A stretch of DNA of 32,000 bases from Candidatus Methanophagaceae archaeon (lineage in GTDB: Archaea > Halobacteriota > Syntropharchaeia > Alkanophagales > Methanospirareceae): positions 30,001 to 62,000 of the forward strand of contig PQXB01000003.1 in assembly GCA_003194425.1 (NCBI GenBank). Reading direction: 5' to 3'. A program made the translations under genes and the position numbers. Shown here one piece after another: positions 6,501 to 24,241 of this stretch. The notes under the pieces are model-generated. The model had not been told where the DNA came from, did not search any database, and saw only the letters and a list, made by a program, of their open reading frames with translations. Every line of letters starts with the position of its first letter. The stretch's first letter is position 1.

Positions 6501-6567
6501 CTCTTACCCCTTCACTACTCTCCAATCTACACTACTCTTACCCCTTCACTACTCTTACCCCTTCACT
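6501..6567. repeat. intergenic 17-nt repeat (actcttaccccttcact x2 tandem at 6534-6567, plus a third copy at 6501-6520)
   Basis: Read directly. Lies between the DUF106 stop and the CBS gene ATG. Confidence 0.9.
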
Positions 6568-6591
6568 ACTCTTCAACTTACATTCCAACCC

Positions 6592-7278
6592 CTACACCGC
6601 ACTCCTTATCCCCAACGCTTTTCTAATCACAACTGTCAAAGGAAACGAGCAGACGAGATACCAGAACATCCAGTACGGCAGGGAGAAGACAAAAGTCTCC
6701 GTGAGTTCTTTCGTTCCGATTAGAGGAAAAATCACCGTTCCGCCGCCGGAATAAACTGCTGCGTACTTCCAGAGCCACATAAAAACTGGAAAAGTGATAA
6801 TGCCGATGTAAGCCATCGGTTTCATCTGCTGCTTCATCAACTCGCCCGAGAACTGCGCCTGCTTGCTCATCACCTCCGCCCGCCTCTTCTCAAGCCGCTT
6901 CATCCTGTGGCTGTTCTTCTCCTTCCTCGCCTCAAAATACTCCTTCTGAATCTCCCGCATCTGCTTCTGATATTTCTTCGACTTCTCCATCAGTTCCCAG
7001 TTCATCGTGTATTTCTGCACTAGCGAGGTGTAAATGCCTGTGACCACGGTTAAGAGCAGGACAGTAACCAAGAAATTATCAGGACCCACGAACTCTGCGA
7101 GCGGTCCAAGAACGACGTTCAGGGCAGTCCCCATTTTTTCGCGGAGCCCTGGAATTATGACAATGCCGAACAGGACGAAGAAACCCAAGCCCATTCCTGC
7201 TCCCTCTACAAGCTTCTTCAACTGCTCTCTCTTTTTCTTTTCTTTCTGCTCTGCCTGTTTATTTTTCTTGGTTGCCAT
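6592..7278 (-). CDS. DUF106 / archaeal YidC-Oxa1-like (EMC3/TMCO1 family) membrane protein
   Basis: TM helix, a long K/E/R-rich coiled segment (KKYQKQMREIQKEY...KRLEKRRAEVM), then two more TM helices, the DUF106 topology. Confidence 0.6.
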   Translation of the reverse strand: MATKKNKQAEQKEKKKREQLKKLVEGAGMGLGFFVLFGIVIIPGLREKMGTALNVVLGPLAEFVGPDNFLVTVLLLTVVTGIYTSLVQKYTMNWELMEKSKKYQKQMREIQKEYFEARKEKNSHRMKRLEKRRAEVMSKQAQFSGELMKQQMKPMAYIGIITFPVFMWLWKYAAVYSGGGTVIFPLIGTKELTETFVFSLPYWMFWYLVCSFPLTVVIRKALGIRSAV

Positions 7279-7366
7279 TTTCTTGTCTCTGTTTGTTAAG
7301 AGTTTGAGAAATAAAAGAGAAGAGCAAGTATTTAAAGTTTAAGTAAAGGAAAAAAGAGGAGCGGAA

Positions 7367-8098
7367 ATGTTTGTTTTTGGGCATCTCGGGGTAACGCTGG
7401 GAGTCGTATTTTTGGCGCTACGGCTCTTAAAATTAAGAACAAAACTTGAAATCAAGTTCAACCGCCGTCTCTATCTTTTTGTCTTCACGGGCTCGCTCTT
7501 GCCTGATTTAATTGACAAGCCAGTAGGCGAGATTTTGCTGGCAGGTTCAATCTCAAACGGCAGAATCTTCGCCCACACGCTCCTCTTCAACTTTCTCCTG
7601 CTACTCTTTTGTCTTTGGCTGTACAAGCGAAGCGGCAGCCGAGAAGGGAGAGAAGGGAGCAGAGAAGAGAGAGAAGGGAGAGAAGGGAGCAGAGAAGAGA
7701 GAGAAGGGAGAGAAGGGAGCAGAGAAGAGAGAGAAGGGAGAGAAGGGAGCAGAGAAGAGAGAGGGCTAGGAGGAAACAAGAATGGTTTTGGGTTTCTGCT
7801 CTTCAGTTTTGCTTCTTTTCTTCACCTCTGCGAGGATCGGATGTGGCTCACTCCAGAGACGCTGTTCTTCCCTGTTTTTGGGTTTGAGTTTCCGCAAGGC
7901 GCGGTAGAATCGCACTGGTGGGACTTTTTTTTAGGCTGCTTTTTCGGGACTTACTCGCCTTTGAGGGGTGCTGAACTCTCGTACGTGTTTGTCTCTGAAA
8001 TGGTAGGCTTTTCGGTCCTGCTGGCGTTCGGTTTGCATCATTTCCACAGTTTTATCCTCCGCTACCGAATGTCGAACCAGAGGTGGAGTTCGCGGTAA
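7367..8098 (+). CDS. membrane-bound metal-dependent hydrolase-like protein (DUF457/YdjM-like)
   Basis: N-terminal FGHLG...SLLPDLIDKP pattern and a polytopic membrane profile. Interrupted by a 40-aa (EGREGSREER)4 insert. Confidence 0.45.
   Translation: MFVFGHLGVTLGVVFLALRLLKLRTKLEIKFNRRLYLFVFTGSLLPDLIDKPVGEILLAGSISNGRIFAHTLLFNFLLLLFCLWLYKRSGSREGREGSREEREGREGSREEREGREGSREEREGREGSREERGLGGNKNGFGFLLFSFASFLHLCEDRMWLTPETLFFPVFGFEFPQGAVESHWWDFFLGCFFGTYSPLRGAELSYVFVSEMVGFSVLLAFGLHHFHSFILRYRMSNQRWSSR
7641..7760. repeat. 30-nt tandem repeat x4, perfect (gagaagggagagaagggagcagagaagaga)
   Basis: Read directly. In frame in the DUF457-like gene; encodes (EGREGSREER)4. Confidence 0.97.
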
Positions 8099-8826
8099 GG
8101 CTCGGCTGCTGCAGCATTTTCACTTGGATTTCCGCTTAGTCTGAACAAGAGGAACTCCAGTTTCTTCATTCCGTAAATGTCCAACCAGCCGTCGTCCTTC
8201 TTTTTGACTTTTAGCCCGTAAGTTTTGTTGCTGCCGCTGATTTTTACGGTCGCTCTTTCCTCTTCCGTGTCGAGAACTATTCTGGCAAAGTTTTCGTCCT
8301 TAACAATGAAAATATTTTCCTCGTCCGCGGACTTGAAGATTTCCACACCCTCTTCTCCCGCCCACTCAATTTCAAGCGCGTCCACGAGGTAGTTTAAGAG
8401 CTGCTCGCTCTCGTCTCCGGGAACGTTCTGCCAGCGAAATAAGTAAGTTCCGTACACTTTACCTTCTCCTGCCCCTGTTCCTGACGCGGTAAAAGAAAAA
8501 GGGAACTCCACAGTTTCGTTGTGTGGCAGCCGTATTTTCTTCTCGGCGATTGTTTTGTTTTCCACCACCACCCTGAGCAGGTAGGAGACGTTCTCGTATT
8601 CGTGGTTGCCCACGCCAATTATTAGATTTCCCTGCTCGCCTGCTGAAAGGCTTGAGGGGTAGCCAGCCGCTTTACCGCTCTCGTTGAGAATGTAGAATTC
8701 GGTGAATTCTTCGCCCTTCTTTGGCGTTACGACCACATAAATAATGAGCACAAGTGCTACGAGAATAGAAATAATCAGGAGTGCGGAGAGGATTTTGTCA
8801 CGAGTTTTCGGTTTAGACTTGGGCAT
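8062..8826 (-). CDS. DUF1616-like archaeal membrane/surface protein
   Basis: Start moved to internal ATG 8826 (MPKSKPKTRDKILSALLIISILVALVLIIYVV...TEFYILNESGKA...GVGNHEY), typical of DUF1616. The longer 8940 form would translate a polypurine tract as S/P-rich sequence. Confidence 0.45.
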   Translation of the reverse strand: MPKSKPKTRDKILSALLIISILVALVLIIYVVVTPKKGEEFTEFYILNESGKAAGYPSSLSAGEQGNLIIGVGNHEYENVSYLLRVVVENKTIAEKKIRLPHNETVEFPFSFTASGTGAGEGKVYGTYLFRWQNVPGDESEQLLNYLVDALEIEWAGEEGVEIFKSADEENIFIVKDENFARIVLDTEEERATVKISGSNKTYGLKVKKKDDGWLDIYGMKKLEFLLFRLSGNPSENAAAAEPYRELHLWFDIR

Positions 8827-8853
8827 AGAAAATTTTAGAGCGTTTAGAGCGGT

Positions 8854-8928
8854 GAGAGGAGAAGGAGAGGAGAAGGAGAGGTGTGGAAAAGGAGGAGAAG
8901 GAGGAGAGGAGAGGGAGAGAGAGGAAAG
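8854..8928. repeat. ~75-nt polypurine/polypyrimidine tract (interrupted only by tgt at 8882-8884)
   Basis: Read directly. Lies between the mtd stop and the preferred DUF1616 start. Confidence 0.9.
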
Positions 8929-8936
8929 CAGCTCAC

Positions 8937-9803
8937 TCACGCACTCGGTTTCTCCAGCAACCCGACCTTCCTCATTATTTCTCCGCTCCTTGCGTGCGGC
9001 TCGCGGACGAGGCTGTCGGTCTGCTTCTCCATTTCCCGTGCCTCGAAAGCGAGTTTCGCGGCTTCACGCAAGAGTTCGTGCGCCGCCGCTACAACAGGCA
9101 CGTACTCCTCAGGCTTCTGCATCATAAAACAGCCCTTCACATCCAGCTCCGCCACCTTCTCGGTCATACTGTAAGCCGCGAGAGCCTTCGCTTTTGCGTA
9201 CGGGTTCGAGAACCCCGCCCGTTCTACCGACTTCTCCGCGGTCGCGATTATCTGCGGTAATTTCACTTCCTCGCCGCTTGCACCGCTCGGACCGCTCGCT
9301 CCGCTCTTCACAGCTTCTACGACCGCGTCAATCTCCTCCTGCAACAACTTCGCCACGCCCGTAATTGAGAGCACCGAGAGTACGTCGGCGTTAAACAGGC
9401 TCATTTCTACGGGGTCTAAAAACTCCCGCCTCGCTCCGATCATCGGGTCGCCGGGAATAATAATGTAGCCAAAACCACCCTCCTTCAACTTCGGCACCGC
9501 CTTCTTCGCAGGTGCGTCCGAGATAACAATGCACGGCTTGCCCTTCTCTTTCGCCATCTCACGCGCTCGCTTCGGTCCTGGAAGAGCCGCGTTCGGGCTC
9601 ACTACCACCACCAAATCCGGGTCCCAGTCAAGCAACCGCGAAGCGTCCGCAGCGCAGTCTGGCGTCATTTTCGCTCCCGTCCCCAGCACACGAACATCCA
9701 CATCCTCTCTGTCCGCTCTCTCGTCCAGCAACAAATCCACAATCCTCGAAGCACCGATGTTCCCCAATTTCACAAATCCTACTTTCACTATTTCCTTCGC
9801 CAT
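8937..9803 (-). CDS. mtd: F420-dependent methylenetetrahydromethanopterin dehydrogenase
   Basis: Full-length colinearity with Mtd as I recall it: KLGNIG...LLLDERADREDVDVRV...GARREFLDPVEM...NPYAKAKA...YVPVVAAAHE...AREMEK. Confidence 0.93.
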   Translation of the reverse strand: MAKEIVKVGFVKLGNIGASRIVDLLLDERADREDVDVRVLGTGAKMTPDCAADASRLLDWDPDLVVVVSPNAALPGPKRAREMAKEKGKPCIVISDAPAKKAVPKLKEGGFGYIIIPGDPMIGARREFLDPVEMSLFNADVLSVLSITGVAKLLQEEIDAVVEAVKSGASGPSGASGEEVKLPQIIATAEKSVERAGFSNPYAKAKALAAYSMTEKVAELDVKGCFMMQKPEEYVPVVAAAHELLREAAKLAFEAREMEKQTDSLVREPHARSGEIMRKVGLLEKPSA

Positions 9804-9899
9804 TTTAATCTCTCTTACCTTTTGCGCAGGCGGGCATAAAAAGATATTTCTTTTCTTTTAAAATCAAAAACCAAAATAAAAAATACAAAAAAGTAAAAA

Positions 9900-9972
9900 A
9901 GTCCCGTGGTGTAGCGGTCAAGCATACAGGCCTTTGGAGCCTGTGACAGGGGTTCGAATCCTCTCGGGACTA
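9900..9972 (+). tRNA. tRNA-Gln (anticodon UUG)
   Basis: Hand-folded cloverleaf: acceptor AGTCCCG/CGGGACT with A1-U72, D arm GTGT/GCAT, anticodon stem CAGGC/GCCTG with loop CT-TTG-GA, T arm AGGGG-TTCGAAT-CCTCT, discriminator A. No encoded CCA. Confidence 0.9.
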
Positions 9973-10060
9973 CTTTTGTCAAAATCGGTTCTTTTGGTAA
10001 AGATTTTCTTTTCCGCGATGCATTTTAATCAAACTTTTAAAAAGTTTGAAATAAAAGGTT

Positions 10061-10759
10061 TTACTTCAGCACCTCCAGCAATGCAACCCGCTCCAAGACC
10101 AACTTCCCTAACTTCTCCTCGCCCTTCCCCTTTCCCTCACCCTTTCCCTCACCCTTTCCCTCACCCTCACCCTTTCCCTCGCCCTCGCCCTTTCCCTCGC
10201 CCTTTCCCTCTCCCACCGCCCTCAACTCCGCTTCGGTTACGCCAAAGAACTTTTTTATTCGCTCCCTCTTCGCCTCATTCAATTCTAAAACCGCCTCTTC
10301 CTCCAACCCCGTCTTCCTCTTCACCTCCGCCGCCACCGCCTCCAAATCCAACTCCTTCTTTCTCTTGCCCTCTCCCTCCCTCACTGCGTCAAAAATAACG
10401 ACCGCAACACTCTTCTCGTCGCCTTCGCGCTCTGACGCCGAGACGCCAATTTCCAACGCCCGTCCAATCTGCCTTCTACCCGCAGCGTACAAGAGAACCT
10501 CCAAGCCCAGGTCGCTCGTTAGGTTTCTTCCGCTCTTTTCGGCTCTCACCGCCTTCTGAACCGCTGACTTTAAGTGCTCCTCGCCTGCCACTAAGTTCGC
10601 GTTCAGAGCTTGCACCACCACGCCGTCGTAGTTGGAGGCAACGCTTTTCAGCGTAGCAAGAAAAGCCTTTAAATTCGGAATGCGGACTTTACCGGCGAGT
10701 ATTTTGGTGTTTATTTTGGAGTTTTGTTCCCGCTCTAAATATTTTTCTTGGTTTTGCAT
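10061..10759 (-). CDS. cgi121: KEOPS complex subunit Cgi121
   Basis: VVQALNANLVAGEEHLKSAVQKAVRA...LGLEVLLYAAGRRQIGRALEIG matches the Cgi121 core. The C-terminal half contains a (GEGK/GEGE)n insert. Confidence 0.6.
   Translation of the reverse strand: MQNQEKYLEREQNSKINTKILAGKVRIPNLKAFLATLKSVASNYDGVVVQALNANLVAGEEHLKSAVQKAVRAEKSGRNLTSDLGLEVLLYAAGRRQIGRALEIGVSASEREGDEKSVAVVIFDAVREGEGKRKKELDLEAVAAEVKRKTGLEEEAVLELNEAKRERIKKFFGVTEAELRAVGEGKGEGKGEGEGKGEGEGKGEGKGEGKGKGEEKLGKLVLERVALLEVLK
10129..10212. repeat. 12-nt (6-nt sub-unit) tandem array cctttccctcac / cctttccctcgc inside cgi121
   Basis: Read directly. Encodes a GEGK/GEGE run on the minus strand. Confidence 0.93.
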
Positions 10760-10760
10760 T

Positions 10761-10792
10761 TTGCATTTTTTTACAGTTGCATTTTTTTACAG
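10761..10792. repeat. intergenic 16-nt perfect tandem duplication (ttgcatttttttacag x2)
   Basis: Read directly. In the divergent region between cgi121 and the methyltransferase. Confidence 0.95.
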
Positions 10793-10845
10793 TTTGTTAT
10801 TGTTTTGCTTTACTAGTTAACAAATAAAGGGAAATAAATGGGAAA

Positions 10846-11406
10846 ATGAGTGGTAAAAAAGAACGAGTCTGCCCTGTTGAAAGAGCAGGGATGCTTGATA
10901 AGAGGATAAGAAAATTATTGCAGAACCCCAAAAAGATTTTAGAAAACTATGTTAAAGAAGGGGCGACAATTTTGGATTTAGGCTGCGGTCCCGGATTCTT
11001 TTCTGTGGAAATGGCTAAAATGGTCGGTAAATCCGGCAAAGTTATTGCTGCCGACCTGCAGGAAGGAATGCTTCAGAAATTGAAGAACAAGATTCAAGGA
11101 ACAGAAATTGAAAAGAGAATTGAGTTACACAAATGCGAAAAGGATAAAATTGGAATTTCGGAGAAAGTAGACTTTGTTTTGGCTTTTTATATGTTTCACG
11201 AAGTTCATAATCAAGAAAAATTCTTGGAAGAGATAAAATCGGTTCTAAAGCCAAGTGGGAAATTTTTTATCGTAGAGCCAAAATTTTTTCACGTTTCAGA
11301 GCAGGCATTTGAAGAAACGATAAAAAAAGCCAAAAAAGTAGGATTTAAACCCACCGAAAGACCAAAAGTATTTTTTAGCAGGGCTGTTGTTTTGAAAGTA
11401 TTATGA
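10846..11406 (+). CDS. class I SAM-dependent methyltransferase
   Basis: Motif I ILDLGCGPGFF, acidic post-I residue (AADL), FVLAFYMFHEV, PSGKFFIVEP. Visibly lower GC than its neighbours. Stop overlaps the asd ATG (ATGA at 11403-11406). Confidence 0.8.
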   Translation: MSGKKERVCPVERAGMLDKRIRKLLQNPKKILENYVKEGATILDLGCGPGFFSVEMAKMVGKSGKVIAADLQEGMLQKLKNKIQGTEIEKRIELHKCEKDKIGISEKVDFVLAFYMFHEVHNQEKFLEEIKSVLKPSGKFFIVEPKFFHVSEQAFEETIKKAKKVGFKPTERPKVFFSRAVVLKVL

Positions 11407-12569
11407 AAAACAGGAAGAAGATAAAAGTAGGGGTCTTGGGAGCGACGGGAAGCGTGGGGCAGAGGTTCGTGCAGCTTTTAGACGGACACCCCTGGTTCGA
11501 GCTCGCGGGGCTCTTCGCATCTGAGAGGAGTGCAGGGAAAAAATACCGCGAGGTGGCGAAGTGGTTCCTGCCGTCTGAAATGCCAGAGGAGGTTGCGGAG
11601 ACGGTAGTACGGTCAGTGGACGAGGCGGGTGCTTCAGTGAGAGGAGACGGAGGAGACGAAGATGAAATCGCAATTATGTTTTCCGCTCTGCCGGGGTCGG
11701 TTGCGAGCGAAGTGGAGAAGAGGTGCGCGGCTGCGGGTTTCGCGGTCTGTACAAATGTCTCGGTGCACAGAATGGATCCCGACATTCCGCTGGTCATTCC
11801 GGAGTTGAACGCTGACCATTTGGCTTTGATCGAGGTGCAGAAGAAGAGGAGGGGCTGGGACGGACGGGGCGGGTTCATCGTGACGAACCCGAACTGCTCT
11901 GCGATTGTTCTGACTTTGAGTCTGAAGCCGCTGATGCAATTAGGGAACGGGATAAGGGAGGTGCGGGTAGCGACGATGCAGGCGGTCTCGGGCGCCGGTT
12001 ACGCAGGCGTGCCCTCGATGGCGATTATTGACAACGTGCTCCCTTTCATCGGAAACGAGGAGGAGAAAATGGAGACCGAGCCACTCAAGATTCTCGGCAC
12101 GCTGGAAGTGGAAGCGGGAGCGGGAGCAGGAGCGGGAGCGGGAGCAGGAGCAGGCTGGAAGAGAATAAAAAATGCTGAGTTCAAGGTCTGTGCCTCTTGC
12201 CACCGCGTTCCTGTTTTAGACGGGCACACAGAGGCGGTCTGGGTGCGGTTTGAGGACGGGGAAGGAGGGGAGGATGGGGAGAGTGTGGGGGTGGAAGAAG
12301 TGAAATCGGCGTTCAGAAACTTCGCTACGCCACTAAAAACGCCGTTCGCACCTGAAAACCCGATAATTCTGCGTGAAGAGCCGGACAGACCGCAGCCGAA
12401 GTTGGACAGGGACGCGGGTGGGGGAATGAGCGTCTCGGTCGGTCGGGTGAGAAAAGGGCGGGCGGAGAACGAAGTGAAATTTATCACGCAGGGGCACAAC
12501 ACAGTGAGGGGCGCTGCCGGTGCCTCGATTTTAAACGCCGAGGTGCTGGTTGAGAGGGGCTACATTTAA
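11403..12569 (+). CDS. asd: aspartate-semialdehyde dehydrogenase (archaeal type)
   Basis: VGVLGATGSVGQRF Rossmann N-terminus, active-site NPNCS, SGAGY, CHRVPVLDGH. Contains an E(AG)7 insert. Confidence 0.88.
   Translation: MKNRKKIKVGVLGATGSVGQRFVQLLDGHPWFELAGLFASERSAGKKYREVAKWFLPSEMPEEVAETVVRSVDEAGASVRGDGGDEDEIAIMFSALPGSVASEVEKRCAAAGFAVCTNVSVHRMDPDIPLVIPELNADHLALIEVQKKRRGWDGRGGFIVTNPNCSAIVLTLSLKPLMQLGNGIREVRVATMQAVSGAGYAGVPSMAIIDNVLPFIGNEEEKMETEPLKILGTLEVEAGAGAGAGAGAGAGWKRIKNAEFKVCASCHRVPVLDGHTEAVWVRFEDGEGGEDGESVGVEEVKSAFRNFATPLKTPFAPENPIILREEPDRPQPKLDRDAGGGMSVSVGRVRKGRAENEVKFITQGHNTVRGAAGASILNAEVLVERGYI
12114..12155. repeat. 6-nt / 18-nt tandem array (gcgggagcgggagcagga x2.3) inside asd
   Basis: Read directly. 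Encodes (AG)7. Confidence 0.93.
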
Positions 12570-12759
12570 ATTTAAATTGGAAGGGAAGGATTGAAGAAAC
12601 CTAAAAAGCAAGAGGCTCTTTAGCAAGAAAGAGAGTTGTTATTGAACAACTTTGTGACTATGAAATGAGGAGGGCTGCAGAGTCCACGTTCTCTTGTTTA
12701 AACGCAGATTCGGTGTGTTTGTGAGAGCAACCAAGTTTGAGAATATTGTTAAAGAAGTT

Positions 12760-12789
12760 GTGCTGAATTATGCTGTGCTGAATTATGCT
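12760..12789. repeat. intergenic 15-nt perfect tandem duplication (gtgctgaattatgct x2)
   Basis: Read directly. In the convergent spacer between asd and the beta-helix gene. Confidence 0.95.
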
Positions 12790-12834
12790 GATTTGTTACT
12801 TATTAGACAAACCAGTAGCAAACGCCACTTTAGG

Positions 12835-15630
12835 TTAGGCGGCGAACTCTACTCCTTCCAGCTCTTTTCCAATCTGCTTTGCGATCTCCTCGGGTTCTGC
12901 TTTTGCTTCTGCTTCTTGCGTGGCTCTTGGGTTGTACTTCCAATTTGCTGTCTCGCTGCTGATCGTCGCGTACGGCGCCGTCGGCTCCAACAACGCAACG
13001 TACCACACCGCGTCAAACCCCACCGCACCCCAGTTTCCTACCAGAATCGAAAAGTTGTAGGTCTGGTCGAAGTTTGGCGGCAGCGTGAGCGGCGTGACCA
13101 ACATTTGCGACCAGTAGCCGTAACTTGGCAATCCTAAGTACCAGACGAAATAAGAGTCTACGTCCACCGCGGTTGGGTTTTTTAAGCCGATTGTGACTGT
13201 CATCGTCTCGCCGGGTTTGTAGCTCGGTTTGTTTGTTGTGACTAAGACTGTTGGTTGTTTGGGTGTTGAGGGTACCAAAGGCAAATAATCCCCTCCTTTT
13301 ATTATCTCTCCTGAGCAATTGTAGGGTATCTGCCAATCCCCGATACCGTCCTCGTCTACGTCAAACCCTTTGTAGTCGCTCCAGTAGTTTCCGCCCAGGT
13401 AAGGACCGCCGATTATGCTCGTTCCCGCAGTTTTTGTGATGTTCCAACGGTTGTTGCCGTCGTCATAGGCGTTGTTCGTGTTGTTTGCGAAGTAGTTGTT
13501 GTAGATGAGATTGTTGTTACTCAAATTCCACAACCCAATGCCGTAGCCGTTGTCAAATATGTTGTTGTCAGAGATTGTGTTGCTGGCGGAATTTTCAAGA
13601 CCGATTCCCTCCTCATCGTTTGAATAGATGCTGTTATTCGAGATTATATTGTTGTTACTCAAATTCCACAACCCAATGCCGTAGCCATTGTCAGATATGA
13701 TATTGTCAGAGATTGTATTGCTGGCGGAATTTTCAAGGTCAATTCCCTCCCCATTGTTTGATATGTTGTTGTCAGAGATTGTATTGCTGGCGGAATTTTC
13801 AAGGTCGATTCCCTCCTCATCGTTTGAATAGATGCTGTTATTCGAGATTGTATTTCTGCTCGAATTATAATGCCAGAGGCCATCGTCGTTTGAATAGATA
13901 TTGTTATTCGAGATGAGGTTGTTGTCGGAAGAATCCAAGGCAATGCCGTCGCCACTGGTGTCGAAAATGTTGTTATTCGAGATTGTGTTGCTACTTGGAT
14001 TGAAAACAAGGAGGATTCCATGCTCATTGTTTGAATAAATGCTGTTATCTGAGATTATGTTATTTTTACAAAACGGATGCCCCAACTCAAAGCCACTGTT
14101 GTCGTTAGATGCAATGTTGTTAGTCAAAATGTTGTTTGAACCTGTTATGAAGAAGCCGTCGTAATTGTATGATGCACTGTTATTCGCTAAAGTGCAGTTG
14201 CTTGAATGTAGGGAAAAGCCATCGCCATCGTTGTTATAGTTTGCAGTATTATCAGTTAAAATGCTGTTGTTAGAAGAGGACAGGAAAAAGCCTCCGCCGT
14301 TGTTATAGTTTGCAGTATTATCAGTTAAAATGCTGTTGTTAGAAGAGGACAGGATGATGCCCTTCCATTTGTTGTTTGAGCAGTTATTTTTTGTTATCTC
14401 GTTGTTGTTTGAATAATAGAGGCTGATGCCATAACCATCGTTGTTTTCGCATTTGTTGTTTGTTATCTCGTTGTTGTTTGAATAATAGAGGTCGATGCCA
14501 TCCTTGTTTGAGCAGATGTTGTTTGATATGGTGTTGTTGTTTGAATCCCTGAAGAAAATGCCAGTCCCTCTGTTTGAGGAGCAATCGTTGCTGGATATGC
14601 TACTGTTGCTTGATTCCACGAGAGAGATGCCAGTCCCTCTGTTTGAGGAGCAATTGTTGTTAGTTAAAGCATTGTTGCTCGAAACAGATAGGTCGATGCC
14701 GCCCCAGTTGTTGTAGTCAGCGGTGTTGCTGGTGAGCGTGTTGTTACTTGAATCTCTCAACGCGATGCCATCCCAATCGTTAGAATTCACGATATTGTCA
14801 GTGAGAATATTGTTGCCACCTCCAAAGATAGAGATTCCTCTCCTATTGTTACCAGAAACAATGTTGTTAGTTAAAGCATTGTTGCTCGAAGAATCCAGCC
14901 GGATGCCGTGGCTGTTGTTATTGGCGGTGTTGCCGGTTAAAGTGTTACCGCTCGAATCCTGCAAGTAGATGCCGTAGTTGTTGTTCGCAGCGGAGTTACT
15001 GGTAAGGGTGTTGTTGTTTGAATCCCTGAAGATGATGCCATAGCCATTGTTTGAGTCTGCGGTGTTGCCAGTGAGCGTGTTGTCATTCGAAAAACCCACG
15101 CTGATGCCGCCGCCGTTGTTTGATACGATGTTGTTCGTGAGTGTATTACTGGGCGCCCACCACAGAGAGATGCCTGCGTCGTTCATCTTTACATTGTTGT
15201 TAGAAATGTTGCAGTGGCTCGTGCTGTTTGTTGGTAATGTAGAAAGCGTTGTGACGAGGTAAATACCTGCTTTTCCTGGTCCAGCCGCACCTGTTACCGT
15301 GAACCCGATGATGTTCACATATTCCGCGGTTACACAAAAGACATAGTCGTTTGGATTTGCTGCCCGAACAGTGGTCGTGGCGGGACCGTTCTCCGAGCGG
15401 ATCGTGAGCCGCTGCTTGCTCACATCCACGTTCTCGGTGTAGGTGCCGTCGCGCACGACGATTGTGTCGCCGGGCGAGGAGGCATTCATCGCCTGCTGAA
15501 TTGTTGTGTAGTCGTCGGGCACGTAAATTGTTGCTGCACTCACGGCAGCAGGCGCAAGGGCAAGGGCTACAAGTAGCGAAATCGCAAAAACTGTAGTCGC
15601 TATTTTTCTGTTGCTTATTTTGGTTTTCAT
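12835..15630 (-). CDS. secreted surface protein with about 30 right-handed parallel beta-helix (PbH1/NosD-like) repeats
   Basis: Signal peptide (ISLLVALALAPAAVSAA), NosD-like head (IYVPDDYTTIQQAMNASSPGDTIVVRDGTYTENV), then long runs of ~22-23 aa N/S/T/G/I-rich repeats. The GGNYWSDY...DEDGIGD motif and a beta-rich C-terminal domain follow. ATG 15630 is preferred; GTG 15645 is possible. Confidence 0.8.
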   Translation of the reverse strand: MKTKISNRKIATTVFAISLLVALALAPAAVSAATIYVPDDYTTIQQAMNASSPGDTIVVRDGTYTENVDVSKQRLTIRSENGPATTTVRAANPNDYVFCVTAEYVNIIGFTVTGAAGPGKAGIYLVTTLSTLPTNSTSHCNISNNNVKMNDAGISLWWAPSNTLTNNIVSNNGGGISVGFSNDNTLTGNTADSNNGYGIIFRDSNNNTLTSNSAANNNYGIYLQDSSGNTLTGNTANNNSHGIRLDSSSNNALTNNIVSGNNRRGISIFGGGNNILTDNIVNSNDWDGIALRDSSNNTLTSNTADYNNWGGIDLSVSSNNALTNNNCSSNRGTGISLVESSNSSISSNDCSSNRGTGIFFRDSNNNTISNNICSNKDGIDLYYSNNNEITNNKCENNDGYGISLYYSNNNEITKNNCSNNKWKGIILSSSNNSILTDNTANYNNGGGFFLSSSNNSILTDNTANYNNDGDGFSLHSSNCTLANNSASYNYDGFFITGSNNILTNNIASNDNSGFELGHPFCKNNIISDNSIYSNNEHGILLVFNPSSNTISNNNIFDTSGDGIALDSSDNNLISNNNIYSNDDGLWHYNSSRNTISNNSIYSNDEEGIDLENSASNTISDNNISNNGEGIDLENSASNTISDNIISDNGYGIGLWNLSNNNIISNNSIYSNDEEGIGLENSASNTISDNNIFDNGYGIGLWNLSNNNLIYNNYFANNTNNAYDDGNNRWNITKTAGTSIIGGPYLGGNYWSDYKGFDVDEDGIGDWQIPYNCSGEIIKGGDYLPLVPSTPKQPTVLVTTNKPSYKPGETMTVTIGLKNPTAVDVDSYFVWYLGLPSYGYWSQMLVTPLTLPPNFDQTYNFSILVGNWGAVGFDAVWYVALLEPTAPYATISSETANWKYNPRATQEAEAKAEPEEIAKQIGKELEGVEFAA
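14230..14354. repeat. perfect 56-nt direct duplication (14230-14285 and 14299-14354, offset 69 nt = 23 codons) inside the beta-helix gene
   Basis: Read directly. Similar near-identical blocks lie at about 13500-13850 (for example attgttgttactcaaattccacaacccaatgccgtagcc twice). Confidence 0.9.
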
Positions 15631-15791
15631 TTTTTTTGTTTTCACCTTCTAATTTTTTTATTTTTGTGTGCTCTTGTCGCGCCGAGCGTTTGGATTTCTC
15701 TTTCTTTCCCCCTTCTCGCCCACACCCACACAACAATATTCACACATAATTAAAGATAAAACTTAACGCTATAAAATGGTTAAAGTTTAAC

Positions 15792-18790
<2,999 letters not shown>

Positions 18791-18818
<28 letters not shown>

Positions 18819-19960
18819 ACTACTGCGTCGTATTTCTTACGACCCAAAATCTGCTCGATTTCTTTTGACTGCGCACCTTTAATCAGGTCTATTTCAGAGG
18901 AGGAGTAGTTTGAGATGCCCTTTGCGAATTCCACGCCACCTGCGTCGGCAATGCTCACCGGGTCGCCACTCGCGAACTCGCCTTCAACACCAACGACGCC
19001 AGAAGCGAGTAGGCTGCAGCGGTTTTCTGTCAACGCCGTCTTTGCACCTTCGTCCACCTTAACCTTGCCCTTCACTGCGGAAGCGAACCTGAGCCAGTGC
19101 TTGCGGTCGTTAATCTTTTCTACGGCGTCAGCCTCTGGAAGAAAAATTGTCCCGACGCGTTCGCCTGCTACGATTCGTGCAAGAATGTCCGCCTTGTTGC
19201 CGTTCGCGATGACGAGAGGAATGCCTGCTCGGGTTGTGATTTTGGCGGCTTGAATCTTTGTCTTCATTCCGCCCACCCCTGTTTTTCCGCCACTGCCCGC
19301 TGCTGCGAGACGCTCAATCTCAGGCGTCACTTCCTCTACAATCGAGATGATTTCTATTTTCTTTTTCTTGTTCCTCCCCTCCTTCTTACTCTTGTTCCTC
19401 CCCTCTTTCTTACTCCTTGGGTCGTGAGTGTACAAGCCTTCGGTGTCGGTAAGAATGACAAGCAAGTCTGCACCGAGGTTGCTCGCTACCAGGGCGGACA
19501 AGTTGTCGTTGTCGCCGAGTTTGATTTCGTCCACCGCGACGGTGTCGTTCTCGTTGATTATTGGGACTACACCGGACTTGAGCAACGCGAGGAGCGTGTT
19601 TCGGAGGTTGAGGTAGCGGCGTCTGTTGAAGAAGTCCTCGTGGGTGAGCAAGAGTTGGGCGATTGTCTGCCCGTGCTTGGTGAAAAACCTGTCGTAAGTG
19701 CTCATCAGGACGCTCTGACCGACTGCAGCGGTTGCCTGCAGCACTTTAATGTCGCGAGGACGCTGTTTTATGCCGAGTTTCCCAATTCCTGCACCGATCG
19801 CACCCGACGAGACTAAAATAACCTCTTTACCCTGCTTCTTCAGTTCAACCACCTCTCTGGCGAGTTTCTCGACTTTTCGTGGCTCAAGCCGGTAGCTCTT
19901 GTCGGTTAGGCTGCTGGTTCCGACTTTTACTACGACCCTCCTCATTTTTTTATTTCTCAT
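18791..19960 (-). CDS. proB: glutamate 5-kinase with C-terminal PUA domain
   Basis: VVKVGTSSLT, VSSGAIGAG, NENDTVAVDEIKLGDNDNLSA, GGMKTKIQAA, then a PUA-like tail (DEGA...GVVGVEGEF.SGD). ATG 19945 is an alternative start. Has a tandem SKKEGRNK insert. Confidence 0.88.
19367..19414. repeat. 24-nt tandem duplication (1 mismatch) inside proB
   Basis: cttgttcctcccctccttcttact / cttgttcctcccctctttcttact. Encodes SKKEGRNK twice on the minus strand. Confidence 0.93.
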
Positions 19961-20666
19961 TCTCCAAATCCAAAGCCCAGAGAACCCCTCGCAAGTCTGT
20001 CAGAACGAACTCCTCTTCTTTCCTCCCGCTTCTCACCTCTCTTCTCTCCCCGCTTCTGCCCTTGCTTCTGCTCCTCTCCAGAAAGAAGGAATTCATTCCG
20101 ATTTTTCGCGGGTTGAGAAAATCGAAGACCCAGTGGTCACCTGTGTGAACGACCGCCTGCGGCTCCACACCCAGAATCTCGCAGACCCGCTCGTAAAAAC
20201 CGTTTGACTTCTTCACCGCTCCGAAGTCAGAGGTTGCGGAAAAGGTGTGGGAAAAGAACTTTTTTATCCCACGAATTTGAAATTCAACGAACTCCGTCGG
20301 CGCGTTCGAGCAGACAACCAGCTCAAACCCCGCCTCCTTCAAAACCCTCAAAACCTCCTCCGCCTCCTCGTAAATCCTCACCTCTCCCTCGCACCGCCTA
20401 AACAACTCCTCACGCGTTACCTCCCCCTCCAAGCCAAACTCCCGCAGCCAGTAGTCAATTTTGTACCACTCGACCCGCTCCTCGCCCACTCGGTCGTACC
20501 TGCTCTTCACGAACTCAAACGCCTGCTCAAAGCTCAACCCCTGCTTCGCGGCGTAAGCCTCTGGAACGCCTCGCAGCCAAACGCAGTCCGCAAAGCCCTG
20601 ACTCACCAAAGTACCGTCAAGGTCGAACGAGAAGACCGCTAACTCTTTAGCCCTCAGTTTTTCCAC
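19950..20666 (-). CDS. HAD-superfamily hydrolase
   Basis: Motif I FSFDLDGTLV, motif II CSNA, motif IV HTGDHWVFD. GTG start. R/S/K/E-rich insert near the C-terminus. Confidence 0.7.
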   Translation of the reverse strand: MEKLRAKELAVFSFDLDGTLVSQGFADCVWLRGVPEAYAAKQGLSFEQAFEFVKSRYDRVGEERVEWYKIDYWLREFGLEGEVTREELFRRCEGEVRIYEEAEEVLRVLKEAGFELVVCSNAPTEFVEFQIRGIKKFFSHTFSATSDFGAVKKSNGFYERVCEILGVEPQAVVHTGDHWVFDFLNPRKIGMNSFFLERSRSKGRSGERREVRSGRKEEEFVLTDLRGVLWALDLENEK

Positions 20667-20681
20667 CTCCCTCTACCTCTT

Positions 20682-21833
20682 CTACCACTTCTCTACCTCT
20701 TCTACCACCTGCTCTAACGCCTCGATTGTCCTCGAGACCTCGTCCTCGGTTATGTTTCCCATCGTGGCGATTCGGAAAATCTTGCCCTTCAGCCGCCCCT
20801 GCCCGCCTGCTACTCTTACGCCTCTCTCCAGCATTCCGCCCCGAATCTGCTCGTCCCCGTCCACAAGCCCCTTGCCTTCAGGAATCTTGACCGCGGTAAC
20901 CGTGTTTGAGTAACTGCTCACCTCGTTCAGCCGTGGGAACAACTCAAGCCCAAGCCCTCTAACTGCGTTTCGAACCGTCTCCGCCAGCCTTCTGTGCCGT
21001 TCTACCCGCCTCGTCAGCCCCTCCTCTTTTACCACCTCCAACGCCTCGTGCAGTGCGAAGAAGAGAGGCAGAGCGGGCGTGTAGGGCGTCTGCCGCTTCT
21101 CAAAACTCTTCTTGTAAGCCACGAGGTCAGCGTAGTAAGGTCGTTTTTTATTTTTCTTTTCTTTCTCTTTTTCCTCTTTGTTCTCCTGAATCAAGTCCCA
21201 CGCCTTCTCGCTGACCGAGACCGCAGACAGCCCTGGCGGAGCACCTAAGCATTTCTGCGAGCCCACGATCGCGATGTCCACGCCGAACTCGTCCACCAGA
21301 ACTTCGTCTCCCCCAATTGAAGTGACGCAGTCAAGCACAAAGACCGCGTCGTGCTTCCTCGCAAGCCGCCCTACTTCCCTCGCGGGATTGAGAATGCCCG
21401 TTGAGGTCTCGTTGTGCACCAGCGTAACCACTTTGGGTGCGGAGCTGGGACTTTCTTCCAAAGCCGCCTTCACCACTTCTAACTCAATCGGGCTTCCCCA
21501 GTCAAAGTTCGCCTCTCTTTTACGCTTCCCGCCTCCGCCCCCCGCCGCGATCTCAGAGAACCGCTCTCCAAATTTGCCGTTCGCTACGCAGACCACTCTC
21601 GTCCCCTCTGCAGCGAGGTTTTCTACTGCCGCTTCCATCGCGCAAGTTCCCGACCCGCTCAGCACAAAGAGGTCGTTCCTCGTCTGAAAAATCTCTTTCA
21701 GCCCCTCCACAATCTCCGCGTACAACTGCCCGAATTCTTCTCCCCTGTGAAAAATCATTGGCTTTGACATCGCCTCTCGAATCCGCGGCAGCACCGGCAC
21801 CGGTCCCGGAATCATCAACAACTCCTCTTCCAT
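20682..21833 (-). CDS. class V PLP-dependent aminotransferase (serine-pyruvate / phosphoserine aminotransferase-like)
   Basis: MIPGPVPV N-terminus, NETSTG, FVLDCVTS, SQKCLGAPPGLS (PLP lysine). Two low-complexity inserts (GGGGGKRKRE; ENKEEKEKEKKNKKR). Confidence 0.8.
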   Translation of the reverse strand: MEEELLMIPGPVPVLPRIREAMSKPMIFHRGEEFGQLYAEIVEGLKEIFQTRNDLFVLSGSGTCAMEAAVENLAAEGTRVVCVANGKFGERFSEIAAGGGGGKRKREANFDWGSPIELEVVKAALEESPSSAPKVVTLVHNETSTGILNPAREVGRLARKHDAVFVLDCVTSIGGDEVLVDEFGVDIAIVGSQKCLGAPPGLSAVSVSEKAWDLIQENKEEKEKEKKNKKRPYYADLVAYKKSFEKRQTPYTPALPLFFALHEALEVVKEEGLTRRVERHRRLAETVRNAVRGLGLELFPRLNEVSSYSNTVTAVKIPEGKGLVDGDEQIRGGMLERGVRVAGGQGRLKGKIFRIATMGNITEDEVSRTIEALEQVVEEVEKW

Positions 21834-22132
21834 ATTTCTCTCAAATCCTTTCTTTCATTTAATCACAAGCAAATGCGACCCTTCGCCAAGCTCCGTTGAA
21901 TTCTGCAACTTCATATTCCGCCCATCCAAAGTCAACGCAACCTCCTCTGGAACCTCCGAAGCTTCCCATGCCAAAGTCGTCCTCTCTCCTGCCGGAACCC
22001 CTACGCTGAGATTCCAAGTTCCTCTCTCCCGGTCTTTGTTTAGCTCAGTTGCAAAAAACTTATTCTCTCTTTCGCTTTTGCATCGTTTTCGCTTTCTTAT
22101 TTTATTCTTCTTTTAGCACTTTTTAAAAAGTT

Positions 22133-23008
22133 ATGAAAGAGGTGCTGAGGCGGTTTGCGAGCGGGAAAATAAGTCTGGAAGAGGCGTGCGAGGTGTTGAA
22201 GACAGAGTTGAGGTTAGAGTTGAGGTCAGAGTTGAGGTCAGAGTTGAGGTCAGAGTTAAAGTCAGAGTTGAAGTTAGAGGGGGTGAGAAGAGTGAAGGAT
22301 TTTGCGAGAATTGACGCGGACCGACTGCAGAGGACGGGCGTGCCAGAAATAATCTTTGCCGAGGGGAAGAGCAGCGACGAGGTGGCGGAAATCGCTGTGG
22401 CACTCGCAACCGCAAAGGGCTTTGCGTTGGTGAGCAGGGCGAGCGGAGAAGACGCAGCCGCGGTAAAAGCTGCAGTAAAAGTGCGTGTAAAAAAAAATAA
22501 AAATAAAAGTAGAGATGCAGAAGTAGAATTTGAGGTTGACTACAACGGTGCTGCGGGGACGGTTGTGGTGAAGAGGAGGGGGCACGAGTTTGAGAAGGCG
22601 GGAAAAATCGGCTTAATCGCGGCTGGAACCGCGGACATTCCTGTCGCCGAGGAGGTGAGGGTTGTGGCTGAGGTCTGCGGGTGTGAGGTGGTAAAAGCGT
22701 ACGATGTGGGAATTGCGGGCTTGCACAGGCTTGTAGAACCGCTTGAAAAGATTTTAAGGGCTGGCGTGGCGGCGGTCGTCGTGGTCGCAGGAATGGAGGG
22801 TGCGTTGCCCTCGGTTGTAGCAAGTCTTGTGGACGTGCCTGTAGTAGGCGTTCCGACTTCGGTGGGCTACGGGTTGGGCGGCGAAGGAGTAGCAGCGATT
22901 CTTTCGATGCTGCAGAGCTGCTCGCCTGGTTTGGCGGTGGTAAACATTGACAACGGCGTCGGAGCGGGGACGTTCGCTGCAAAATGCGCGCGATATTTTC
23001 TCCGTTAA
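22133..23008 (+). CDS. larB: LarB-like (PurE/AIR-carboxylase family) nickel-pincer cofactor biosynthesis protein
   Basis: DRLQRTGVPEIIFAEGKS, GLIAAGTADIPVAEE, VVVAGMEGALPSVVA, VVGVPTSVGYG, VNIDNGVGAG. Carries an (ELRS)n insert and a K-rich insert. Confidence 0.75.
   Translation: MKEVLRRFASGKISLEEACEVLKTELRLELRSELRSELRSELKSELKLEGVRRVKDFARIDADRLQRTGVPEIIFAEGKSSDEVAEIAVALATAKGFALVSRASGEDAAAVKAAVKVRVKKNKNKSRDAEVEFEVDYNGAAGTVVVKRRGHEFEKAGKIGLIAAGTADIPVAEEVRVVAEVCGCEVVKAYDVGIAGLHRLVEPLEKILRAGVAAVVVVAGMEGALPSVVASLVDVPVVGVPTSVGYGLGGEGVAAILSMLQSCSPGLAVVNIDNGVGAGTFAAKCARYFLR
22205..22279. repeat. 12-nt tandem array gagttgaggtca x6.25 inside larB
   Basis: Read directly. The three central copies are perfect and the edges diverge. 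Encodes (ELRS)n. Confidence 0.95.
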
Positions 23009-23015
23009 ATAACCT

Positions 23016-23678
23016 TCAATCTAGCAAAACCCCGTCCCGCATCCTTTTTGTCATTCCTGCGCGTGCTGCAATCTCGGCGTCGTGCGTTACCACAATCACC
23101 GTCCGTCCCTCGCGATTCAGTCCCTCCAAAATCTCCATTATTGCGTTTCCCGCCTCTGTGTCCACATTTCCAGTCGGCTCGTCGCCGATGACGATTTCGG
23201 GGTCGTTTGAGAGTGCACGTGCGATCGCGACGCGTTGCTGCTGCCCGCCGCTCAGCTCCGCGGGTTTGTGTTGCAGCCGGTCGCCGAGCCCGACCTTTGC
23301 AAGCAGTTCCTCCGCCCGCTCCGTTCGTGTCTCGTGCCGCACGCCCGCGAAGAACATTGGAAGCGCGACATTTTCAAGTGCGTTTAAGGTGTGAATGAGG
23401 TTGAACTGCTGGAAGATGAACCCGATTTTCTCACGCCTTATTTCCGCAAGCTCGTTCTCGGTCAGCGACGCGGTGTCGGTGCAGCCGATGAAAACCGCCC
23501 CGCTCGTCGGCTTGTCCAAGCAGCCGAGCATATTTAGGAGAGTGGATTTTCCGGAGCCAGACGGGCCAATTATCGCAAGAAATTCGCGGTCCGCAATCTC
23601 CAAATTCACATCCCGAAGTGCTTGGACCTCCACCTTGCCCATTTTGTAAATTTTTGTTAGGTGCTCGGTGCGAATCAT
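23016..23678 (-). CDS. ABC transporter ATP-binding protein (MacB/LolD/FtsE-like)
   Basis: Walker A GPSGSGKST, Q-loop, signature LSGGQQQRV, Walker B IVIGDEPTG, H-loop VTHD. ATG 23678 (MIRTEHLTKIY) is preferred over GTG 23696. Confidence 0.9.
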   Translation of the reverse strand: MIRTEHLTKIYKMGKVEVQALRDVNLEIADREFLAIIGPSGSGKSTLLNMLGCLDKPTSGAVFIGCTDTASLTENELAEIRREKIGFIFQQFNLIHTLNALENVALPMFFAGVRHETRTERAEELLAKVGLGDRLQHKPAELSGGQQQRVAIARALSNDPEIVIGDEPTGNVDTEAGNAIMEILEGLNREGRTVIVVTHDAEIAARAGMTKRMRDGVLLD

Positions 23679-23716
23679 TCTAACAATGTTTTTCACGCAT
23701 TTTTGTTTTTTCTTTT

Positions 23717-23755
23717 GCGTGTTTGTTTTGCGTGTTTGTTTTGCGTGTTTGTCTT
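23717..23755. repeat. intergenic 13-nt tandem repeat gcgtgtttgtttt x3
   Basis: Read directly. Lies upstream of the ABC ATPase in the divergent region. Confidence 0.93.
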
Positions 23756-23818
23756 GTTTTTATAAAAGGAAAAAACATTTTTTAAAGGAAGGAACATTTA
23801 TTTAAGTGGTGAGAAAAA

Positions 23819-24208
23819 ATGGCAGAAACCATAATATTGTGCAAGGAGGGGACAATAAGCTCGTATTTGGACAGTCTTGTTGTCGCCGCAAACCGAAAGA
23901 AGGCAGGAGAAGACATAGCAGTGGTATTTATGGACGAAGGCTTGGCAGCGCTGGTGGACGGGAAGTTCAGGTTCCCTGCAGGGTTGGAGAGCTACGCGGA
24001 GGAGATAAAGAAGAACGCAGCGCGGATGGGTGTTCCTTCAGACCCATTCGAACTGATAAAAATGGCGAGCGGTGCGGGGGTGCCCTTGTACGCGAATTTT
24101 GCGTGGGCGAAACTCTTGGGGGTAGAAGTCCCGGAAGGGCTGCAGAAGATGGAGTTGAAGGAGTTTTTGGCGGAGTTAGGCAAAGCTAAACAGGTTATCT
24201 CGTTTTAA
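23819..24208 (+). CDS. DsrE/DsrF-like family protein
   Basis: 129 aa with a DsrE-like layout (IILC..G......SLVVAA......EDIAVVFMDEGL... and C-terminal GVPLYAN......LG.........KQVISF). GGTGA lies 7 nt upstream of the ATG. Confidence 0.45.
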   Translation: MAETIILCKEGTISSYLDSLVVAANRKKAGEDIAVVFMDEGLAALVDGKFRFPAGLESYAEEIKKNAARMGVPSDPFELIKMASGAGVPLYANFAWAKLLGVEVPEGLQKMELKEFLAELGKAKQVISF

Positions 24209-24213
24209 CCGAC

Positions 24214-24241
24214 CTAACCTGACTCCGCTAACTTGACTCCG
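24214..24241. repeat. intergenic 14-nt tandem duplication (ctaacctgactccg / ctaacttgactccg)
   Basis: Read directly. Lies just after the DsrE-like gene's stop. Confidence 0.9.

Follow-up and report, generated by a model that had tools for sequence, protein, structure and literature searches.

Short tandem arrays in an ANME-1 archaeon: periods in multiples of three inside genes and a flat distribution of periods between them

The locus and its tandem arrays

The stretch of DNA analysed here, 32 kb of contig PQXB01000003.1 (hereafter the window), has a dense archaeal gene map that is dotted, within genes and between them, with the short tandem arrays that are the subject of this work. Pfam scans and the gene calls of syntenic contigs place 32 protein genes and two tRNAs in it, leaving just 2.07 kb of non-coding DNA. 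Among the genes are those for F420-dependent methylene-tetrahydromethanopterin (H4MPT) dehydrogenase (Mtd), O-phosphoseryl-tRNA synthetase (SepRS), Cgi121, Bud32, aspartate-semialdehyde dehydrogenase (ASD), glutamate 5-kinase (ProB), riboflavin synthase (RibC), TldD, a YchF-like GTPase and a NosD/β-helix protein. In a scan of species-representative genomes, the closest matches to Mtd (73–85% identity) came from metagenome-assembled genomes (MAGs) of Methanophagales, group 1 of the anaerobic methanotrophic archaea (ANME-1), and the TldD of one strain is labelled ‘Candidatus Methanospirareceae archaeon’ in NCBI; the window is DNA of one species of ANME-1 (Methanophagales) archaeon. Over-long open reading frames (ORFs) were trimmed, with refined starts for CBS2 (6474), DUF1616 (8826), RibC (16271) and Bud32 (25947). 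Rfam and tRNA scans of the window returned tRNA-Gln and tRNA-Phe only, and no RNA family beneath any array.

Tandem arrays were called with Tandem Repeats Finder (TRF) and catalogued independently as exact arrays of at least two copies and at least 16 nt, with a unit of at least 4 nt; shuffles that keep codons and spacer composition served as the null model. A further ~50 kb of this species was drawn from the flanks of strain contigs and from two regions, L115 and L118, that were reached through a dispersed intergenic element and in which gene starts were set from Pfam domain positions, bringing the total to ~82 kb, a part of the genome. Exact look-up of three repeat-free proteins yielded ~20 independent contigs of other strains (ENA, JGI, NCBI, Logan), which align to the window at about 98–99% identity, and 19 of them, at about 98.5% identity, entered a catalogue of length alleles built on a chain of anchors. 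Their cover of 12.7–16.5 kb, which includes the arrays at 12760 and 16282, is near nil, a look-up with RibC giving one short contig.

A preliminary description of positions 6501–24241, made from the letters and their ORFs alone, had reported 16 short-period coding arrays with periods that are all multiples of three (3n) and six intergenic ones with periods that mostly are not. TRF re-found the 16, with periods of 9, 12, 15, 18, 24 and 30 nt, distributed over YdjM (30), Mtd (9), Cgi121 (12), ASD (9, 18 and 9), the C-terminus of the β-helix protein (12), RibC (9), DUF3160 (12, 15, 9 and 9), ProB (24), a HAD hydrolase (24), a class-V aminotransferase (15) and LarB (12). The six intergenic arrays likewise stand exactly as first written, and all fall between genes on the refined map, in the spacers 6475–6591, 10760–10845, 12570–12834, 16272–16304, 23697–23818 and 24209–24325. 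The 20-, 19- and 7-nt arrays and the GA-rich composite listed in Table 1 are additions to that description. All arrays are contiguous head-to-tail copies, and none has the spacers of clustered regularly interspaced short palindromic repeats (CRISPR). The peptides that the coding arrays encode are enriched in G, E, S, K and R (25% G, 21% E) and depleted in hydrophobic residues.

Array periods and strain alleles inside and outside genes

The window holds 32 exact arrays, where codon-preserving shuffles yield ~1.3, and their periods divide by location: 21 coding arrays have a 3n period and one has not, against 4 and 6 of the intergenic ones (Fisher p=0.0014), the shuffle means for 3n and non-3n arrays being 0.66 and 0.51 in coding and 0.04 and 0.10 in intergenic DNA. 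The 28 arrays with a TRF score of at least 50 (0.3 in shuffles) give the same picture. A wider period histogram, which the preliminary description had proposed as a check, bears this out over the additional ~50 kb, short of the whole genome, with 3n to non-3n ratios of 34:1 in coding and 4:10 in intergenic DNA (16:0 and 2:6 in the strain-contig flanks, 18:1 and 2:4 in L115 and L118). For all ~82 kb the ratios are 55:2 and 8:16 (Fisher p=2.6e-9), and the 3n share of the intergenic arrays, 8/24 or 33%, is the one third of a flat distribution. Over the same sequence there are 0.76 arrays per kb in coding and 3.3 per kb in intergenic DNA, so that the coding density is about a quarter of the intergenic one.

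The strongest evidence for the 3n rule is the comparison of strains, whose length differences fall almost exclusively at arrays. In gene bodies, all 54 distinct non-zero length alleles found at 21 polymorphic sites are 3n, compared with 7 of the 28 alleles at 11 intergenic sites (Fisher p=6e-14; by sites, 1.7e-7). At these 32 polymorphic sites the strain sequences show the plain gain or loss of whole units, and no gene body in the 19 contigs carries a frameshifting allele of the kind that marks contingency loci. Repeat-bearing proteins vary in length (CooC-like 275–293, YdjM 223–243, TldD 504–537 and NADH-oxidase (NOX)-like 506–533 aa), and those counted as repeat-free are constant (Mtd 288, SepF 134 and EMC3 228 aa). 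In a qualitative tally, arrays of at least three copies are nearly all polymorphic and most two-copy arrays (11641, 18232, 25121, 24214) are fixed.

Non-3n events that touch coding sequence (CDS) lie only at its edge, which is the pattern that a frame filter predicts. The unit of the 20-nt array at 20671–20708 contains the stop codon of the aminotransferase gene, so that any further copy lies beyond the first stop and the protein keeps its length of 383 aa; spanning a stop codon, this array was not accepted as a non-3n case within a gene body. In the strain region L103, a 17-nt unit includes the start codon of the fructose-1,6-bisphosphatase (FBPase) gene; in one strain, the CooC-like gene has a 1-nt deletion within its last three codons; and a ‘+1’ at 7364 lies in an A-run immediately 5′ of the YdjM ATG. 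Intact gene bodies in the added sequence are free of non-3n arrays, in keeping with the preliminary expectation, the sole new coding exception being an 11-nt duplication close to where a truncated fragment of an N6/N4-methyltransferase ends. Within the window, the sole coding non-3n exact array is a 7-nt unit ×2.4 in ZPR1 (1927–1943, 17 nt), which is at chance level. TRF also called a period of 17 in SepF (2426–2470); this was discarded as a counter-example, as the true spacing within this polypurine tract is 18 nt.

Between genes, the 16-, 13- and 19-nt arrays lie in A/T-rich stretches flanked by divergent genes and vary in copy number among strains. These stretches probably contain promoters, the spacing of which could be altered by a change in copy number.

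Table 1. Tandem arrays of the window and the Mtd gene, with unit lengths, copy numbers and strain length alleles (in nt)
Gene or spacer	Positions	Strand	Unit and copies	Encoded peptide	Strain alleles and remarks
CooC/MinD-like ATPase	3108–3201	-	24 nt (6-nt sub-unit) ×3.8	(GSGSAS)n	-54, -48, -30, -18, 0
M50 site-2 protease	4321–4361	+	6/12 nt	(KV)n	+6, +12, +18
CBS2 to EMC3/DUF106, intergenic	6501–6573; exact ×2 at 6534–6567		17 nt ×4.3, composite (TRF)		spacers of 66, 97, 112, 142 nt (net -46, -15, +30; +19 in anchor catalogue)
YdjM-like membrane hydrolase	7641–7763	+	30 nt (9+12+9) ×4.1	(EGREGSREER)n	-60, -48, -39, -36, -27, -9; absent in ANME-1 orthologues
Mtd–DUF1616 spacer	8834–8925		GA-rich composite, units 9, 11, 9, 15 nt		-9, +6, +15, +30
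Mtd, whole gene	8937–9803	-
Mtd	9274–9306	-	9 nt ×3.7	GASGPSGASG	fixed in all strains
Cgi121	10117–10214	-	12 nt ×7.2	(GEGK)n	-54, -48, -12
Between divergent Cgi121 and methyltransferase genes	10761–10794; exact ×2 at 10761–10792		16 nt ×2.1		single copy in one strain (-16)
ASD	11641–11658	+	9 nt ×2		not polymorphic
ASD	12113–12151	+	18/6 nt	(GA)n	+6, +12
ASD	12252–12281	+	9 nt, imperfect	EDGEGGEDGE
Intergenic, within ~190-nt dispersed element	12759–12790; exact ×2 at 12760–12789		15 nt ×2.1
β-helix protein, C-terminus	12895–12919	-	12/6 nt
NosD/β-helix domain repeats	13503–14686	-	66–69, 138, 204 nt		71–93% identity; Pfam Beta_helix/NosD ×8
Riboflavin synthase	15933–15952	-	9 nt ×2.2
RibC to DUF3160, intergenic	16281–16299; exact ×2 at 16282–16299		9 nt ×2.1
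DUF3160	16413–16439	+	12 nt ×2.2	NGTG
DUF3160	16935–16968	+	15 nt ×2.3
DUF3160	18232–18249	+	9 nt ×2		not polymorphic
DUF3160	18571–18606	+	9 nt ×4	(GEA)n	-9, +9, +18, +27
Glutamate 5-kinase (ProB)	19359–19415	-	24 nt ×2.4	KKEGRNKS
HAD hydrolase	20012–20074	-	24/12 nt, imperfect
Class-V aminotransferase, stop codon in unit	20671–20708		20 nt ×1.9		3 and 4 copies in other strains
Class-V aminotransferase	21276–21308	-	15 nt ×2.2, imperfect
LarB/AIR-carboxylase-like protein	22195–22279	+	12 nt ×7.1	(ELRS)n	-36, -24, -12, +12
Between divergent ABC ATPase gene and hyp129	23709–23756; exact ×3 at 23717–23755		13 nt ×3.7		1 to 6 copies
Same spacer as the 13-nt array	23765–23805		19 nt ×2.1		1 or 2 copies
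Intergenic	24214–24243; ×2 with 1 mismatch at 24214–24241		14 nt ×2.1		not polymorphic
Intergenic	24257–24299 (7-nt array 24282–24299)		5 nt (CTCTT) duplication; 7 nt ×2.6		5-nt duplication polymorphic
NADH-oxidase/CoA-disulfide-reductase-like protein	25018–25097	-	18 nt ×4.4	(EGEGER)n	-18, -36
NADH-oxidase/CoA-disulfide-reductase-like protein	25121–25144	-	12 nt ×2		not polymorphic
NADH-oxidase/CoA-disulfide-reductase-like protein	25541–25623	-	18/9 nt	(GSLGSP)n	-45, -27, -9
Bud32 kinase	26250–26316	+	18 nt ×3.7	(EVGEGS)n	-18; absent in L038 orthologue
Bud32, C-terminal tail	26651–26723	+	24 nt ×2.9		-24
O-phosphoseryl-tRNA synthetase	28021–28067	+	12 nt ×3.9	(DEAG)n	-12 in all 10 strains
TldD	29785–29873	-	15 nt ×5.9	(AAEGV)n	-45 to +30; insertion vs all relatives
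TldD	30213–30257	-	15 nt ×3	SESEK	+15, +24, +30
YchF-like GTPase	30891–30989	+	9-nt arrays	(GDG)n	-48, -9, +9, +18
YchF-like GTPase	31765–31810	+	12/15 nt	GTDG	-15, -12, -6

Several genes with arrays have further peculiarities. Bud32 (26640–26900) bears an ~80-aa C-terminal tail past the ...RGRY end of its orthologues, which holds the 24-nt array, runs 177 nt into the convergent small multidrug-export gene and is possibly a read-through that followed the loss of the original stop codon. In the YchF-like GTPase (30694–32000; L011 5119–6347), automatic calls split the gene at (GDG)n into a 356-aa gene and an ORF of 35–57 aa that is read in a different frame; the correct one is open from the N-terminus with the P-loop onwards. 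The 936-aa secreted NosD/right-handed β-helix protein at 12835–15645, with eight Beta_helix matches, has coil repeats of 66–69 nt, and the periods found at 13503–14686 are old structural repeats (coils of ~22–23 aa), a separate class from the young arrays. The region of this gene marks a rearrangement, because ASD in other strains precedes different genes (DegT, DHQS and DeoC). In MAG GCA_029935775.1 (L008/L104), runs of N lie exactly at the arrays in the CooC-like, M50 and YdjM genes; hypervariable arrays evidently break or scaffold-gap short-read assemblies.

The strains also differ by two larger insertions. Three of them (L002, 5703–8414; L003; L005) have a 1533-bp insertion in the 5′ end of ASD (window 11401–11511), with a 111-bp direct repeat on either side (94.6% identical), which is a copy of ASD codons 1–37; within the insertion lies a 288-aa gene of the EVE / NucS_C-like PD-(D/E)XK nuclease type, and the old 5′ end is left as a 67-aa fragment. 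A 727-bp cassette (window 5434–5468), present in five of nine strains between the M50 protease and CBS1 and overlapping the M50 3′ end, encodes a toxin-antitoxin pair of a Pol-β-type nucleotidyltransferase and a HepT-like protein.

Origin of the arrays

Set against the ANME-1 orthologues of YdjM, Mtd, Cgi121, Bud32 and TldD, the arrays are clean insertions between conserved blocks. An example of this is found in Cgi121, where AVGES-KL in the orthologue becomes AVGEGKGEGK...EEKL here, with a 30-aa insertion relative to the L027 orthologue; similarly, KRNGSEEKG in a YdjM orthologue becomes KRSGSREGREG..., Mtd has a 9-aa insertion relative to relatives at 81–85% identity, and TldD has three inserts. 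Units are idiosyncratic, differing from array to array: among 595 array pairs only 3 share a 12-mer, all three of polypurine low complexity, and neither the same unit nor the same flanks recur at many sites, as they would for a mobile or imported module, shared 10–12-mers being of low complexity only. New two-copy arrays carry 1–2 nt, up to 10 nt, of an extra partial copy, and in the L118 paralogue of the dispersed intergenic element the 15-nt unit is present in a single copy, after which the sequence continues as in the window.

This element is ~190 nt long and occurs in at least four contexts (window 12585–12775, L118 6061–6251, L013 3806–4012 and L115 1–182), with the window copy sitting where synteny with other strains ends (12722–12734); its predicted fold is no better than that of shuffles (z=0.16), and it has no Rfam match. 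In TldD, the loop of the (SESEK)n array (residues ~90–115) bears unrelated insertions in ‘Ca. Methanospirare jalkutatii’, and the TldD of Alkanophagales has an insertion in a different loop; the same permissive TldD loops seem to have been hit repeatedly. An AlphaFold2 model of TldD aimed at the array loops (13-sequence alignment) had a mean predicted local distance difference test (pLDDT) score of 45 and was unusable.

The density of arrays is particular to this lineage. Computed with one pipeline across loci, it amounts to 0.75 coding and 2.8 intergenic arrays per kb in the window, compared with 0.06 and 0.30 in the homologous loci of 25 ANME-1 relatives and 0.05 and 0.41 in 55 other archaea; in the closest relatives identified (74% identity in TldD), 17 kb contained no array and 21 kb a single one (0–0.05 per kb). 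A rise of ~10-fold in coding and non-coding DNA alike points to supply, and not to selection for protein repeats. The GC content is 0.526 here and 0.41–0.45 in the nearest sampled relatives (Mtd 81–85%, TldD 74% identity), a rise of 8–10 points that falls on the same branch as the burst of repeats. High GC was rejected as the cause of the arrays, since other ANME-1 loci at GC 0.50–0.56 have few or none. Several Methanosarcina loci (L088, L073 and L078) also hold many arrays, of 11-nt period (about one helical turn); being AT-rich and probably intergenic, these are unlike the coding arrays here and were set aside as a different phenomenon.

We consider it very likely that the arrays are young, in-place duplications of 5–30 nt that turn over by whole units and whose survival in gene bodies is limited to frame-keeping events. 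Replication or repair would generate such duplications in place, when microhomologies of a few bases allow slipped-strand mispairing or short-range template switching, and the process would strike coding and non-coding DNA alike; arrays that reach at least three copies would then gain and lose whole units rapidly, in the manner of variable-number tandem repeats (VNTRs). Purifying selection, rather than missing mutational input, would remove frameshifts, and with them disruptive inserts, leaving in gene bodies the 3n events that lengthen tolerant loops with hydrophilic, flexible peptides enriched in G, E, S, K and R. Non-3n events would be confined to intergenic DNA and to those gene edges at which the unit bears its own stop or start codon. 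Frame is not the sole filter: because the coding density is about a quarter of the intergenic one and the peptides are so biased, many in-frame events must be purged too, and presumably most of them, the survivors being flexible hydrophilic loops. The preliminary proposal of one short-range duplication process acting everywhere, with frameshifts purged from CDS, is supported by the contrasts in array periods and in strain alleles, and its preference for a mutational driver over pre-formed modules by the idiosyncratic units, the clean local insertions, the single-copy L118 paralogue and the ~10-fold density in both classes.

Several points weigh against this reading. Direct repeats of at least 5–8 nt, spaced 4–30 nt and lying outside arrays, are already 53–77% 3n in CDS, compared with 23–31% in intergenic DNA; mutational input from codon periodicity, and not selection, therefore accounts for part of the 3n excess, and selection is not the sole source of the bias and explains less of it than the naive one-third expectation would imply. 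No frameshifted allele was observed directly, so that purging is deduced from absence, and consensus metagenome assemblies cannot reveal rare variants; the copy number of the longest arrays (~120 nt) may, furthermore, be unreliable in short-read assemblies. The data cover only ~82 kb and not the whole genome, and L115 and L118 count as this species by inference from the shared element, GC content and the sample series. Finally, the strain alleles of the composite at 8834–8925 are all 3n although it lies in an intergenic spacer. Possibly it encodes a low-complexity extension at the N-terminus of DUF1616 (an ORF is open from a GTG at 8940), or its 3n-only indels may be a coincidence, the polymorphic units being 9 and 15 nt; its status is ambiguous.

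Carried to its limit, the codon-periodicity argument would dispense with selection altogether: if microhomologies in CDS lie 3n apart, mutational bias alone might produce 3n arrays with no selection against frameshifts. The seed frequencies given above favour this, as does codon-shuffled sequence, with its 0.66 3n and 0.51 non-3n arrays. However, even against an input of 0.77, the 55 of 57 coding arrays give p≤5e-5, and the strain data give p=7e-7 for 54/54 alleles and p=0.004 for 21/21 sites; selection is still needed beyond the codon-periodicity bias. Non-3n units do occur in CDS, yet they are limited to units that take in a stop or start codon and to genes already disrupted, and the longest seeds may be remnants of former arrays that have passed through selection. 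Bias as the whole explanation is thus improbable. It is also quite improbable that the arrays are kept because they are useful, the coding ones as selected flexible linkers or charged loops and the promoter ones as expression tuners akin to contingency loci. The strong bias of the peptides to G, E, S, K and R would fit such a role, as would the strain-variable 13-, 16- and 19-nt arrays at expected promoter sites between divergent genes and the independent insertions that the same TldD loop bears in other ANME-1 lineages. Yet the arrays are located in dozens of unrelated housekeeping enzymes, their copy number varies freely between near-identical strains, close relatives have none, and the parallel rise of non-coding arrays argues for supply rather than demand; the lack of on/off (frameshifting) alleles rules out phase variation of the classical kind in the coding arrays.

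The remaining two accounts we regard as having next to no probability. Nothing specific speaks for coding repeats that came as pre-formed modules, by recombination or on a mobile element, many units being alike merely through purine richness, and against them stand the lack of a shared unit, the way in which arrays extend the local residues of the orthologue (AVGES to AVGEGKGEGK) and the like behaviour of intergenic arrays with unrelated AT-rich units. An assembly artefact, or chance in small numbers, might be suspected from the N-gaps at arrays in GCA_029935775.1 and from the six intergenic arrays that made up the preliminary sample; but the same sites carry arrays in ~20 independent assemblies (ENA, JGI, NCBI and Logan) that differ by whole units, most arrays are shorter than 100 nt, and the statistics hold out of sample.

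Comparison with known systems and significance

VNTRs or minisatellites in ORFs are familiar from bacteria, for instance in vrrA of Bacillus anthracis (12-nt unit) and in the VNTR loci of Yersinia pestis and the mycobacterial interspersed repetitive unit (MIRU)-VNTR loci of Mycobacterium. The arrays described here resemble these in their head-to-tail units (~9–60 nt), in the whole-unit differences between close strains and in the 3n units within ORFs. In contrast to bacterial genomes with VNTRs, which have a few tens of loci per several Mb, about one array per kb is found here, in an archaeon, and the arrays sit in core enzymes (Mtd, SepRS, ASD, ProB, Bud32, Cgi121, TldD and YchF). Phase-variable contingency loci, whose simple repeats act as on/off switches for genes of Haemophilus, Neisseria and Campylobacter, share with the present arrays a hypermutability that differs between close strains and, in part, a location in promoter regions; unlike in those, there are no frameshifting coding alleles here, and the genes are cytoplasmic housekeeping genes rather than surface or restriction genes.

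Selection against frameshifts reportedly limits non-triplet microsatellites in coding sequence, and the same principle holds here, with 3n periods dominating CDS and all periods found outside. Those surveys are statistics on mono- to hexanucleotide repeats, whereas the units here are of 5–30 nt and individual alleles within one natural population reveal the filter. The 3n filter is, in that sense, textbook knowledge, of which this locus is an unusually dense and clean instance. The flood of inserts finds its closest likeness in Plasmodium falciparum, whose housekeeping proteins are said to contain low-complexity insertions and where, too, lineage-specific, length-polymorphic hydrophilic inserts lie in loops of conserved enzymes. 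The Plasmodium inserts are attributed to slippage plus tolerance; they are N/K-rich and belong to a eukaryote of extreme AT bias, whereas here they are encoded by purine-rich units, consist of G, E, S, K and R, and belong to an archaeon whose GC content has risen to 53%. In yeast, rad27 (FEN1) mutants are reported to accumulate tandem duplications of ~5–100 nt bounded by short direct repeats. The spectrum of duplications is like that seen here, which is a lead only, as our data implicate neither Fen1 nor any other gene. We know of no comparable report for this archaeal lineage.

What makes the locus worth keeping in view is that an uncultured methane-oxidising archaeon carries about one hypervariable short array per kb, many of them in essential conserved enzymes, and that its sisters have almost none. 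It offers a natural population in which mutational supply, seen between genes and at gene edges, can be measured beside selective filtering, seen in gene bodies. The arrays are also ready-made strain markers for ANME-1 populations, and they carry a warning for annotation, since gene callers split the YchF-like GTPase at an array and one MAG breaks at arrays.

We infer that something raised the duplication rate in this lineage. A tentative and rather doubtful extension is that the species is a natural tandem-duplication mutator, in which a heritable change of replication or repair would have raised the rate of short duplications about ten-fold genome-wide, together with the rise in GC on the same branch and a remodelling of the surface loops of core enzymes; by analogy, the change might concern, for example, flap processing, as in yeast rad27, or archaeal mismatch handling. 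If the burst were traced to a definable change of this sort, the species would be a rare natural archaeal duplication mutator, in which low-complexity inserts of variable length would be reshaping the proteins of the methanogenesis pathway and of translation.

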